From sequence record MN655998.1: a DNA stretch of 64,000 bases. The stretch is one strand, 5' to 3'. Every line of letters begins with the position of its first letter. Position 1 is the stretch's first letter. This document shows, piece after piece, positions 181 to 38,336 of the stretch. The stretch is from Escherichia phage E26. Position numbers and translations under genes: made by a program. The notes beneath the pieces are model-generated. The model did not search any database. It had not been told where the DNA came from and saw only the letters and a list, made by a program, of their open reading frames with translations.

Positions 181-654
181 CTATTTGTTAAGCCCTTTAA
201 AGCCAAATACTTTCTTTAATGCGTGTTCAGTTATGATCTTAAACTCCATGTTATACTTTTGGCATAATTTCACGGCAGCCAACCATTTTTCGGTATTTTT
301 TGTGTACGTCCATACTTCATGCATATACCGTTGCTTTGTCTTCGCGGTCATTCTTTTTGGCTTTTCCGGTGGCCTTGTCTCTTTAGCTGGTTTAACTTCC
401 CATAAATGCTCCTTGCCATCATCAAACTTAACGTAAAAATCCATAAAGTATCTGTGTCTTTTTCCGTCTGTTGATGACTCATAAGGAATTACTACGGTCT
501 CAGATCCCCATTTTGCAACTCTAGGATTGCGGTCTAGCCACTGCATGATCCATCTTTCCCAGCTTGAACGGTATGTGATTTTCCGTATATCCCCTTTATA
601 TTTTTCCTTATTCTCAGGAACATACTTGCCCTTATAAGTGTTAGATCCTCCCAT
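181..654 (-). CDS. 4: head completion protein gp4-like
   Basis: 157-aa ORF with ATG and GAGGA RBS, divergent from gene 53 as in T4; size fits T4 gp4. Confidence 0.65.
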   Translation of the reverse strand: MGGSNTYKGKYVPENKEKYKGDIRKITYRSSWERWIMQWLDRNPRVAKWGSETVVIPYESSTDGKRHRYFMDFYVKFDDGKEHLWEVKPAKETRPPEKPKRMTAKTKQRYMHEVWTYTKNTEKWLAAVKLCQKYNMEFKIITEHALKKVFGFKGLNK

Positions 655-669
655 TTTAGCACCCTTTAT

Positions 670-677
670 TATAAATA
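670..677 (+). promoter_or_regulatory. T4-type late promoter box (TATAAATA) for gene 53
   Basis: exact TATAAATA 32 nt upstream of the gp53 ATG. Confidence 0.55.
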
Positions 678-709
678 CATAATACTATTTATCAATTGAG
701 GGTGATAAA

Positions 710-1264
710 ATGCTCTTTTCTTTCTTCCCTGCCATAGAATACAACGGCAAGATGATTACTGACATTGTGCGCAATTACCGCGCATATTTCAACGCAATAA
801 TTTCTGATTATAACATACAAACATATTACATTCAAGGTAGTCCACGACCGGAACAAGTTGCATATGAAGTATACGGAAACCAGCAACTTTATTGGATCTT
901 GCTGATGCTTAATGACGTATACGATCCGTTTCATGACTGGATCACCGATCAAGAGACAGCATATGAATCAGCCGAACAACGATATGCAAATGTAGGAGGA
1001 AATCAAGTATTATACCACGTTGATATTGACGGAAACAAGTATTGGAATCTTACCGAATATCCGAAAGGATCAAGCAACTGGTATGATAAAGGGGATATTC
1101 ATCATCGTCATTTGCAGTTTCAAGGTGCATTATCGGCAGTAGACACACTGGAAGATGCGATCCTCCGTAATGAGGAACGACGCAAGATCAAGATCATAGA
1201 TCCTACACAAATTAAACAATTTATTAACGCATTCATTCGAGAAATGGAAAAGGCTGATGTGTAA
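710..1264 (+). CDS. 53: baseplate wedge protein gp53
   Basis: 184 aa; N-terminus MLFSFF and GSPRPE..LYW..DW motifs resemble T4 gp53; precedes gp5. Confidence 0.85.
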   Translation: MLFSFFPAIEYNGKMITDIVRNYRAYFNAIISDYNIQTYYIQGSPRPEQVAYEVYGNQQLYWILLMLNDVYDPFHDWITDQETAYESAEQRYANVGGNQVLYHVDIDGNKYWNLTEYPKGSSNWYDKGDIHHRHLQFQGALSAVDTLEDAILRNEERRKIKIIDPTQIKQFINAFIREMEKADV

Positions 1265-35985: not shown

Positions 35986-36013
35986 ATTATAGGCATCTAA
36001 ATCGCTCTGTCAA
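35986..36013 (-). promoter_or_regulatory. sigma70-type promoter for the 65-aa/91-aa gene pair
   Basis: minus strand TTGACA, 16-bp spacer, TATAAT, just downstream of the hoc terminator. Confidence 0.5.
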
Positions 36014-36023
36014 GCACTAAAAA

Positions 36024-36049
36024 CAAAAAAGCCACCCCGAAGGATGGCT
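36024..36049 (-). terminator. rho-independent terminator after hoc (paralog of 34869..34894)
   Basis: minus strand AGCCAUCC-UUCG-GGGUGGCU then UUUUUU. Confidence 0.65.
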
Positions 36050-36060
36050 GATAGATTTCA

Positions 36061-37275
36061 TTAAGCAGGATGCGTTTCACGAATGCATAGAACTCGCTCT
36101 AACGTATCTCGGTCCAGTTTATGTAAATCTTTGGAATGATACATGAAACCATTGCGAGATTCCATGCAAGTGCAATCACTATATTTTTCTTCCGCTGCCG
36201 CGATTGTCTCCAGATCTTTGGCGTACTTGCTGGTAGAATAAACTTCTCGGTCACGCCACTCTAACCCAGCCTCATTGAATTTAACAATCTCGTCAAATAC
36301 CCACCATCCAATGTAGATAAATGAAGTTTTGCGCCACGGGATCGGGTGTACGTAACGAAACATTTTAACAACTTCCATTGAACATTTTCTACTTGTACTT
36401 GTTGCAACTTCTACTGTTTCATTTTCGATCTGTTGATATAGTTTAGCAACACACCAGAATTTGGCTGTGTCATCGTAAGTAGCACTCTCTTTGAACAGAT
36501 GACCGTCTGGAGTGATAGAAAATCCTTCCTGTGCTTCGCCGACCTCATTACCGATCAGAGTCGGTGACAGTTGCCCTTCGCGCTGCAAATACCAGTTATG
36601 TTTGATCGTCAATTCAGGCATACCGCTAGAATCGCCTACAATGTCCTCTGACACAACATAATTAAGTAAGATCTCATTACCTAGTGCCACGGTCTTTGAT
36701 TCCACCACATCCTGTTCTACGTTCATTGTTGCCAGCATGATTTTAGTCGATGCGCTATTGGCTGAATCTTCCGACTCACCCCACACTTTTACAGTATACA
36801 CGCCGTTTTTATCTGCTGTAAATTTTTGGATTGTAATATCCTGTTTTGTGTCTATAACTTCTTCGCCCTTACTCCAACTATAATGTAGTTCATAGTTGTC
36901 TGATGGAGTCTTCCCACCAGAAAAATTTACTGTTGCATGTAATTCTACGTCTGTTTGTGATGATACGTAGAAATGCTGCGGTTCGGTGATATTTACGATT
37001 AATTCCGCTTCTTCCATGAGGAAAACTTCAGATTCTACTGATGTCGTCGTATCGGTATCTTGTACCGTTACTTTATAGCTACCCGCATTTTCACTTGTTG
37101 CGCCTTCTACAGTTAGCGTAGCTGTGTTATTTTCATGCGGTTGGTCGTCTTTTGTCCATGTATATGTCAAATTGCTGGGTAATGGTTCGTCACCCTCTAC
37201 AGTCGCCGTTAAGGTGAAACCATCGCCAGCAAGAAAACATCTTTTGTCAGATTTAATTGATACTGTGAAAGCCAT
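36061..37275 (-). CDS. hoc: outer capsid decoration protein Hoc
   Basis: 404 aa; Ig-like domain repeats plus C-terminal capsid-binding motif (YVHPIPWRK..GWWVFDEI..ESRNGF) as T4 Hoc. Confidence 0.85.
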   Translation of the reverse strand: MAFTVSIKSDKRCFLAGDGFTLTATVEGDEPLPSNLTYTWTKDDQPHENNTATLTVEGATSENAGSYKVTVQDTDTTTSVESEVFLMEEAELIVNITEPQHFYVSSQTDVELHATVNFSGGKTPSDNYELHYSWSKGEEVIDTKQDITIQKFTADKNGVYTVKVWGESEDSANSASTKIMLATMNVEQDVVESKTVALGNEILLNYVVSEDIVGDSSGMPELTIKHNWYLQREGQLSPTLIGNEVGEAQEGFSITPDGHLFKESATYDDTAKFWCVAKLYQQIENETVEVATSTSRKCSMEVVKMFRYVHPIPWRKTSFIYIGWWVFDEIVKFNEAGLEWRDREVYSTSKYAKDLETIAAAEEKYSDCTCMESRNGFMYHSKDLHKLDRDTLERVLCIRETHPA

Positions 37276-37470
37276 ATAAAGCCACTCCCATCGAAAATCC
37301 GAATTTAATTAATTGAAATAGTTGATTGTCATCAACCAGATAACCATTGCGAGATTCCAATACATGAGTATTAGAATAGTGATGCAACGAGGCCGAAATA
37401 GTATCGATCTCGTCTGGGTATTTGTTCTGTTTGATGTAATACATTGATTTTGTTAGACATGTAGTATCCT
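37253..37470 (-). pseudogene. remnant of a duplicated hoc C-terminal segment
   Basis: 16-nt identity with hoc (CCATTGCGAGATTCCA); encodes HVLESRNGY like the Hoc tail; the only RBS-ATG is in another frame. Confidence 0.45.
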
Positions 37471-37540
37471 CTTTTTAATTGCATAACGGAACTACAATTA
37501 AAATTATAACAAATATTTCACAACTTTTATCACCCAAAAA

Positions 37541-38266
37541 TTACTTGAGTGTGTGGAATTGGCTATGTTTAGTCTCTCGCACCTTGACAGACCCATCGCG
37601 TTTGATATAATAGATCAGTGACTTGAGGGTGTCGTGTACATACGCGTGCGGGAAACGCTCTGGATACTTCTTCCAATCTGGAGTATTAACGATCCAGTCG
37701 AAAATCCACCACGGGCAGGAGTAGTAACCACGACCGCCACCGATCAAGCAAATGGTCGGACGGAAGCCAGTAAGATCGCAAAATGAATCAGTGTCATGTG
37801 ATGGGGAACGATGTTCTGCTTCGTCAGAGAAAATGTTTGCTACCGGAGATTTCACTTTAACTTCCGGTGCTTCTTCAACATCTGACTTAACTTCTTCGAC
37901 CACTGGTTCAACTGCTGGAGATTCTTCTTTTGTTTCTTCAATGACGATCTCAGTTTCTTTCATTGCTTCAACCAGAGACGGGTCAACTTCGTCGAATACC
38001 ACTTTATCATCTGCGGTGTCTGCTGCCAGAATAAGATCGTTAATACTGGTTCCTTCTGCCGGAGTTTCTTCTTCCATTTCGGAAGCCAGTTTAGTTAATT
38101 CGGTTTCTACGAACTCGATCATGTTCTCTAGTGATAAAGTCTTTTTGACCTTAATATCAAATTGTTTTGCGTAGTCAGCTAATTCTGTTTTAGCTGTTTT
38201 CTGTGCTTCTTTGTCGTCGGACGCCGCAATAGCGCGGAGTTCTTCGAAATATTCTTTATCAAACAT
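37541..38266 (-). CDS. inh: Inh-like protein (prohead protease inhibitor) sharing the Hoc-type C-terminal motif
   Basis: 241 aa; acidic centre; C-terminal PWWIFDWIV resembles Hoc GWWVFDEIV; position after hoc as in T4. Confidence 0.55.
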   Translation of the reverse strand: MFDKEYFEELRAIAASDDKEAQKTAKTELADYAKQFDIKVKKTLSLENMIEFVETELTKLASEMEEETPAEGTSINDLILAADTADDKVVFDEVDPSLVEAMKETEIVIEETKEESPAVEPVVEEVKSDVEEAPEVKVKSPVANIFSDEAEHRSPSHDTDSFCDLTGFRPTICLIGGGRGYYSCPWWIFDWIVNTPDWKKYPERFPHAYVHDTLKSLIYYIKRDGSVKVRETKHSQFHTLK

Positions 38267-38292: not shown

Positions 38293-38300
38293 TATAAATA
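38293..38300 (+). promoter_or_regulatory. TATAAATA late-promoter-like box upstream of uvsW
   Basis: exact TATAAATA 36 nt upstream of the uvsW ATG. Confidence 0.4.
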
Positions 38301-38336
38301 TTTGTATACTGTATTTATTGAGTGAGGCTATTCGCT

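Follow-up and report, generated by a model that had tools for sequence, protein, structure and literature searches.

A probable pseudogene derived from a long second hoc gene in the inh-hoc region of Escherichia phage E26

The hoc gene of Escherichia phage E26, an RB49-like T4-type phage of the genus Krischvirus (Straboviridae), is preceded by a short stretch of DNA that resembles the end of hoc itself, raising the question of where this stretch came from and whether it still encodes anything. We addressed the question in a window of 64,000 nucleotides (nt) of the E26 sequence (MN655998.1), in which the genes on the - strand follow each other as inh (38266..37541), the stretch in question (37470..37253, here called the remnant) and hoc (37275..36061). 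The region is 98.4-99.8% identical to that of RB49-like phages over 501 nt and was matched in 52 of 58 phage records. The initial annotation had interpreted the remnant as a decaying duplicate of a 3' segment of the resident hoc. Our analysis agrees that it is a non-functional, Hoc-related remnant whose coding frame is disconnected from the ribosome binding site (RBS) and ATG, but traces it to a different gene: we consider it highly probable (about 0.93) that 37253..37470 is a pseudogene in which the 5' end of another, long hoc paralogue has become joined to its 3' end.

The resemblance had been noticed through a 16-mer, CCATTGCGAGATTCCA, shared with hoc, which occurs in exactly two copies on the + strand, at 36149..36164 within hoc and at 37344..37359, and which grows to an identity of 18 nt (36147..36164 and 37342..37359). 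Such a count is by itself little proof, since long repeats are common in the window: a first-order Markov model of the window predicts approximately 0.1 pairs of direct repeats of at least 18 nt and 0.8 pairs of at least 16 nt, whereas 20 and 31 pairs, respectively, were observed. The 18-nt identity does lie in a Hoc-tail-like frame, encoding ...HVLESRNGYLVD..., and is contained in the 63-residue open reading frame (ORF) B (Table 1), which reads ...HHYSNTHVLESRNGYLVDDNQLF.... Whether the similarity extends beyond the repeat depends on the level of comparison. The DNA of the remnant and the resident hoc is 56% identical over 117 nt and 48% identical outside the 18-mer, so that similarity to the resident hoc is limited to this run, whereas the protein similarity extends over 39 residues, ORF B being 36% identical to residues 349-387 of the resident Hoc (BLASTP E = 7e-8). 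Moreover, a hidden Markov model (HMM) built for the C-terminal domain (C-domain) in Hoc scored the frame of ORF B with E = 1.4e-13, and ORF B matched the extreme C-terminus of the PHROG Hoc family (E = 1.5e-6). The observation is real, yet judged by its sequence the remnant is unlike a recent copy of hoc.

The origin of the stretch became apparent from sister phages. Searching with ORF B by tblastn returned approximately 50 near-identical copies and, matching at 82%, the C-terminal end of a large hypothetical protein of phage vB_EcoM_G2248 (G2248), encoded by an intact gene of 2541 nt (846 amino acids, aa) between inh and hoc. Comparison with relatives, which had been proposed as a check, thus did reveal an intact gene at this position: long-hoc, of 846/847 aa (2541/2544 nt), lies between inh and hoc in G2248, SSG23, SFHK24, UPWr_E1, Brandy and JK32, all members of Krischvirus, and the remnant matches it in position and strand. 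The N-terminus of the G2248 protein, MSDKINILHQT..., corresponds to the start of ORF A of the window (MSNKINVLHQT), while its C-terminus, ...KYPDEIETIAASLHHYSNTHVLESRNGYLVDGTQLF followed by the stop, corresponds to ORF B, the 3' ends being homologous. Related proteins form 13 further clusters (841-847 aa, 59-96% identity to G2248) in a large protein collection and metagenomes. Pfam found multiple immunoglobulin (Ig) domains in the intact long Hoc, and its AlphaFold2 (AF2) model is all-beta in Ig-sized units up to approximately residue 765, about eight units being counted. The Ig domains were predicted with confidence; the C-domain was poorly predicted (predicted local distance difference test, pLDDT, 27-63; alignment of 13 sequences) and was therefore assigned by sequence, the last approximately 80 residues aligning with Hoc capsid-binding domains. 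In the intact long Hoc, the PHROG families 19377 and 32100, both labelled unknown, correspond to residues 1-34 and 809-846. ORF A was also considered as a homolog of the resident Hoc and rejected, as BLASTP of the Phi1 ORF A against the resident Hoc was empty and ORF A is homologous to the N-terminus of long-hoc. In the literature searched we found no description of the Krischvirus long Hoc or of its remnant.

These comparisons bear directly on the proposal that the 3' end of the resident hoc was recently duplicated and is now decaying, for which the exact 18-nt identity and the similarity to the Hoc tail at the protein level could be invoked. However, the low DNA identity to hoc outside the 18-mer argues against it, as the tail of the long paralogue fits far better, with 82% identity at the amino acid level to G2248, the most divergent copy, and approximately 88% at the nucleotide level to Brandy; furthermore, the 5' part of the remnant is homologous to the start of long-hoc and not to hoc. 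The 18-mer itself also has another explanation. At this site the intact long-hoc genes read ...GAATCTCGTAA[T/C]GGT..., whereas the remnants and the resident hoc read ...CGCAATGGT...; that is, all five intact copies compared (G2248, SSG23, UPWr_E1, Brandy and JK32) have CGT where the remnant and hoc have CGC. Because of this difference, the 18-nt run is explained by the invariant ESRNG motif, a shared codon choice and one synonymous T to C change, and does not point to a duplication or conversion in recent times, although a tiny conversion patch is conceivable. Refuted by the sister phages, in which the gene is intact at this very position, a duplication of the hoc 3' end has almost no probability left.

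The remnant itself can be aligned to long-hoc in two pieces. The upstream spacer together with the first 36 nt is 89-93% identical to the 5' ends of the intact genes, the RBS, the ATG and these 36 nt being unchanged from long-hoc, and from 37424 on the sequence corresponds to the last 112 nt of the intact genes, the spacer behind them and the beginning of hoc, with up to 88% identity (Brandy; both by blastn). The uninterrupted long-hoc frame with its approximately eight Ig-like domains is absent from the window, where approximately 2396 nt are gone, the two pieces meet +1 out of frame and the stop has disappeared. Two lesions are common to the remnants examined, namely a change of the stop TAA to CAA (37315..37313) and a wrecked terminator, of which Brandy, SSG23 and JK32 have an intact form at the boundary of long-hoc and hoc (GCCGACC-TTCG-GGTCGGC-TTTT). 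Phages of the Phi1 type (12 records) retain 75 nt more of the long-hoc 5' end. Relative to UPWr_E1 they have kept nt 1-120, less a 9-nt in-frame loss, and nt 2433-2544, and their deletion of 2312 nt leaves a remainder of 2 on division by three, placing the tail +1 out of frame. The window, representing the RB49 type, has a 3' junction identical to that of the Phi1 type but is missing the 75 nt between two CAGAA repeats.

The following history would account for these structures. An ancestor would have carried a second, long hoc paralogue between inh and hoc, which today is intact in a minority of Krischvirus. An illegitimate deletion of approximately 2.3 kb would then have removed codons ~41-810 and fused what was left +1 out of frame to produce the Phi1-type state, after which a 75-nt deletion between the CAGAA repeats would have cut the 5' piece to 36 nt in the RB49-type lineage; the stop codon and the downstream terminator would have decayed thereafter. 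The remnant reflects the ordinary decay of a gene and is no new element; by its sequence, it is a pseudogene of the long-hoc family and not a member gene.

Coding capacity was considered for both frames. As had been stated, the nearby RBS and ATG serve another frame: the sole Shine-Dalgarno/ATG pair is AAGAGGA (37473..37467) with the ATG at 37460, which opens 29 codons ending at a stop at 37373..37371. A Hoc-like protein would thus not be producible, and ribosomes initiating at the retained RBS and ATG would yield a nonsense peptide of 29 aa. The frame encoding ESRNG lacks a start site for translation and covers no more than the last 40% of the binding domain, the match to the Hoc C-domain HMM being limited to profile positions 60-99. 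While the ESRNG loop is present in frame B of the window (...ESRNGYLVDDNQLF...), it is lost in the JSE remnant, in which the invariant Ser is replaced by Tyr (EYRNG). The N-terminal half of the capsid-binding domain, H-P-x-P-W-R ... G-W-W-V-x-D-E-I, is absent from the remnant, and this missing half is the part with the conserved Arg and Asp described for T4 Hoc. A Pfam scan of ORF B and Inh with a local copy gave no match.

The tail of the remnant evolves without protein constraint, and no purifying selection was seen. Over 36 tail codons, the five intact copies differ by 25 synonymous and two nonsynonymous site changes, whereas four synonymous and seven nonsynonymous events were counted in the remnant lineage among the 10 phages compared (Fisher p = 7e-4 vs. 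the intact copies). The changes E to D, A to S, G to D and T to N of the window hit columns that are invariant in the 13 intact clusters, and in KMB43 the start codon of ORF A has changed from ATG to ATT.

These results bear on the view that ORF B is a real small gene, whose product would be a mini-Hoc tail on its own, binding to the site of Hoc on the capsid or blocking it. In favour of this view, the records of RB49 (RB49p168.2) and Sf20 list ORF B as a coding sequence, a PHROG of its own exists for it, and small stand-alone Hoc C-domain proteins exist in other T4-like phages (KP15_196, 91 aa, and PspYZU05 gp141, 132 aa). On the other hand, its ATG has no RBS and is an out-of-frame ATG of the old 5' piece that is absent from the Phi1-type phages, in which nothing but a TTG within the tail opens the frame; its product would lack the half of the domain with the conserved Arg and Asp partners; and its final 18 residues result from reading across the decayed stop and terminator. 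Together with the nonsynonymous excess and the loss of the invariant Ser in JSE, this makes a functional ORF B very improbable. The annotation of the database records is inconsistent: JSE, Phi1, ECD7 and Makalu have frame A called, RB49 and Sf20 have frame B, and many others have neither.

A further candidate is a programmed +1 ribosomal frameshift (e.g., at CCC-AGA) that would fuse ORF A to frame B and yield a short peptide with a Hoc tail. The two frames do differ by +1, and just past the junction CCC is succeeded by the rare Arg codons AGA and CGA. However, the junction is simply the deletion breakpoint, the product would again contain half a domain, and neither the start codon, lost in KMB43, nor the ESRNG motif, lost in JSE, has been maintained. 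Moreover, Rfam had no matching family at E <= 1, and there is nothing remarkable about the RNA fold (z-score -1.77). We regard a frameshift as the least probable of the explanations considered, with practically no chance of being correct.

Some observations weigh against the pseudogene interpretation or parts of it. The nucleotide diversity (pi) of the remnant, 0.015, is not above that of the flanking genes (0.029-0.032) and is near that of the hoc C-domain (0.017), but with genomes that are 98-99% identical and a genus too young for neutral decay to show clearly in diversity alone, this measure is uninformative on neutrality. The RBS, the ATG and the upstream spacer are well conserved, so that a function of the short peptide or of the transcript is conceivable. 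Finally, since both types have the same 3' junction, the order of the deletions rests on parsimony, by which the Phi1 type first and the RB49 type second appears to be the most parsimonious sequence of events.

The conservation of the spacer between inh and the remnant leads to a further explanation, which is compatible with a pseudogene: that the gene was lost but its DNA was co-opted and kept as a cis-acting leader or promoter for hoc. No stretch of the locus is more conserved than this spacer, whose pi is 0.0025 compared to 0.03 in the inh and hoc genes. An extended -10-like sequence, TGTTATAAT, lies within the spacer, which is possibly a promoter or leader now serving hoc. With the terminator that insulated hoc gone, transcripts from the spacer or from upstream of inh would read on into hoc, whose RBS sits within the old 3' flank of long-hoc. 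In contrast, the conservation may have other causes, such as a hot spot of recombination; the - strand regions upstream of hoc, the remnant and inh contain no exact late promoter TATAAATA; and a sigma-70 scan of the - strand of the spacer gave nothing convincing. Co-option as a leader is a tentative proposal, which we hold to be rather less likely than its opposite while still deserving consideration. The remaining role of the locus is probably non-coding, through the conserved spacer with the former long-hoc expression signals and through the loss of the terminator.

In T4, the capsid-binding domain at the C-terminus of Hoc places a Glu-Ser-Arg-Asn-Gly loop at the centre of the gp23* hexamer (PDB 8T1X; PMC10385173). 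Like the Hoc proteins of T4 and RB49, frame B of the remnant encodes the last two strands and the ESRNG loop; unlike them, the remnant keeps approximately the last 40% of the domain, is without Ig domains, a connected start codon and a stop, and has substitutions at residues that are invariant in functional copies. Phages with two or long Hoc proteins have been described: Serratia phage Muldoon has one of 1174 aa with 10 Ig domains and a second of 314 aa, and Enterobacter phage PG7 has two Hoc-like proteins (PMC10385173). The ancestral Krischvirus state, found in six records, is similar in combining a long (846 aa, approximately eight Ig-like domains) and a short (404 aa) Hoc that share the capsid-binding domain, whereas in the window the long copy is deleted. 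Two-Hoc phages and gene decay are thus already known, and the remnant is a further instance. As separate observations, the Hoc-domain-sized proteins KP15_196 and PspYZU05 gp141 mentioned above are encoded at 319..594 and 184..582 of their own sequences, respectively, and hoc of RB16 (167 aa, 319..822 of its sequence) has the capsid-binding domain at the N-terminus. All three proteins are very small and hardly exceed this domain, a module that evidently serves as a portable capsid anchor.

For annotation, the consequence is that RB49p168.2 (65 aa), phi1p168.1 (54 aa), EpJSE_00174 (29 aa) and PHROG 32100 and 19377 are the same DNA as the remnant, read in different frames from record to record. 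The three proteins are filed as proteins of unknown function, whereas the evidence presented here points to the two ends of one pseudogene. Three hypothetical proteins and two PHROG families of unknown function would thus be fragments of one dead gene, and a pseudogene label is due in more than 50 Krischvirus genomes, several of which belong to phage-therapy candidates. Judged from these genomes, the genus is polymorphic for a second Hoc fibre of 846 aa. The Ig domains of Hoc have been implicated in adherence to mucus and cell surfaces, and for this reason, whether a phage has or lacks the long fibre could influence how it behaves in the gut as well as its immunogenicity and be relevant to the choice of therapeutic phages. 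The practical value of the remnant hence lies in annotation and in the choice of phages with or without the long fibre.

A Hoc-like C-terminal motif had also been pointed out in Inh, and PWWIFDWIV (Inh) and GWWVFDEIV (Hoc) are both present as described. Inh of T4 (lip, hoc.1) is a minor head protein and an inhibitor of the gp21 prohead protease. By BLASTP, Inh and Hoc share only an 8-residue WWxFDxIV match that is not significant alone (E = 0.056), and phmmer with the C-terminal 91 aa of Inh against 1.84 billion representatives gave 88 matches, all Inh-sized and none of them Hoc. As single-sequence searches do not connect the two proteins, profiles are needed. With an HMM built from 86 diverse Inh proteins, T4 Hoc was the best of 177,635 PDB sequences (E = 0.007), aligning ...WI.DWI...DWK...REtRNS of Inh with ...WVMDEI...DWK...QESRNG of Hoc, and hhalign of the Inh profile against a 9-sequence alignment of Hoc C-domains gave a probability of 94.9% and E = 4.3e-8 over 68 columns (Inh 171-241). 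The Hoc C-domain HMM, run against 1288 ORFs of the window, ranked hoc, the remnant and Inh as the top three (Inh third, E = 0.016). In the AF2 model of Inh the C-domain is very confident (pLDDT 96-98); its best PDB match by Foldseek was the T4 Hoc C-domain bound to gp23* (8t1x_X; template modelling score 0.53, E = 0.34), and in BFVD it matched more than 15 Hoc proteins at a probability of at least 0.97, which ranked behind the Inh family. PF26097 and PF26098, the precomputed families of Inh, were not found on long Hoc proteins.

By sequence profile and predicted fold, the C-terminus of Inh is homologous to the Hoc capsid-binding domain, which agrees with the initial annotation both in the presence of this module in Inh and in its repeated occurrence in the locus, where hoc, the remnant and Inh carry it side by side, three times. 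As in Hoc, the C-terminal ~70 residues of Inh appear to share the capsid-binding fold and its motifs (WW.D.I, DWK, and RETRNS vs. ESRNG), the family motif RETRNS aligning with the capsid-contact loop of Hoc; unlike in Hoc, the N-terminal part of the AF2 model is helical and acidic and not Ig-like. The predicted domain offers a testable idea of the site of Inh on the T4-type head. We speculate that inh, long-hoc and hoc form a family built on one capsid-docking domain and that Inh docks through its Hoc-type C-domain, with the RETRNS loop in place of ESRNG, at the site of Hoc at the centre of the gp23 hexamer, a proposal that is doubtful at present. If true, it would account for a protease inhibitor turning into a minor head protein, it would imply competition or a temporal hand-over among Inh, long Hoc and short Hoc for 155 sites, and the loss of long-hoc in most Krischvirus would be a changed capsid surface display and not mere loss of junk. 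The link between Inh and Hoc is more interesting than the pseudogene itself; no statement of their homology was found in the literature searched, and the 2023 paper on the Hoc structure does not mention Inh (PMC10385173).

Table 1. Features of the inh-hoc region of the window.
Feature	Position	Strand	Remarks
Resident hoc, 404 aa	36061..37275	-	RBS/ATG 37289..37273; capsid-binding C-domain ~36396..36121
ORF B, accidental 63-aa ORF (RB49p168.2 / phrog_32100) with Hoc-like tail	37253..37444	-	No RBS; starts at an internal out-of-frame ATG; runs into the hoc start
Wreck of intrinsic terminator	37291..37303	-	Left arm mutated; right arm lost by a 15-nt deletion
3' piece of probable long-hoc pseudogene, last 112 nt (...KYPDEIDTISASLHHYSNTHVLESRNGYLVDDNQLF)	37313..37424	-	Joined +1 out of frame; former stop TAA now CAA
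Codons of the ESRNG capsid-contact loop	37343..37357	-	Within the 18-nt identity with hoc
ORF A, 29-aa junk peptide MSNKINVLHQTEQIPRRDRYYFGLVASLF	37371..37460	-	Frame served by the RBS; 12 authentic residues, then out-of-frame readthrough; annotated gene in JSE
5' piece of probable long-hoc pseudogene, ATG and first 36 nt (MSNKINVLHQTE)	37425..37460	-	36/36 identical to UPWr_E1 nt 1-36
Shine-Dalgarno AAGAGGA of former long-hoc	37467..37473	-	Retained; from sequence
Spacer between inh and remnant, 80 nt	37461..37540	-	One variable site in 80 across 10 phages; TGTTATAAT at 37511..37503
inh, 241 aa	37541..38266	-	Residues ~171-241 (~37756..37544), predicted domain homologous to the Hoc capsid-binding domain

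The surroundings of the locus contain further candidate signals. Right after the intrinsic terminator of hoc lies a perfect TTGACA-16-TATAAT promoter (35986..36013, -, and 36030..36049), an arrangement that presumably resembles the promoter-plus-stem-loop cassettes reported for RB49-type genomes. Another perfect sigma-70 consensus with a TG extension (TTGACA-16-TATAAT, 12/12) is located antisense within the 3' end of inh (37584..37611, +); it faces uvsW, approximately 700 nt off, and could be an early promoter or drive antisense transcription through inh. The uvsW gene starts at 38322 on the + strand, and an exact T4-type late promoter motif TATAAATA is found 22 nt upstream of its start (38293..38300, +), whereas before inh, on the opposite strand, the motif occurs only in versions with one mismatch (38319..38312 and 38306..38299). 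Within the locus, inh has the highest fraction of variable sites (11%). Its product has 241 aa in the window and 242 aa in RB49, in which the central acidic linker (residues ~100-145, ~37830..37960, -) is swapped for a different sequence while both ends are near-identical, and this pattern suggests that the linker is hypervariable or recombining.

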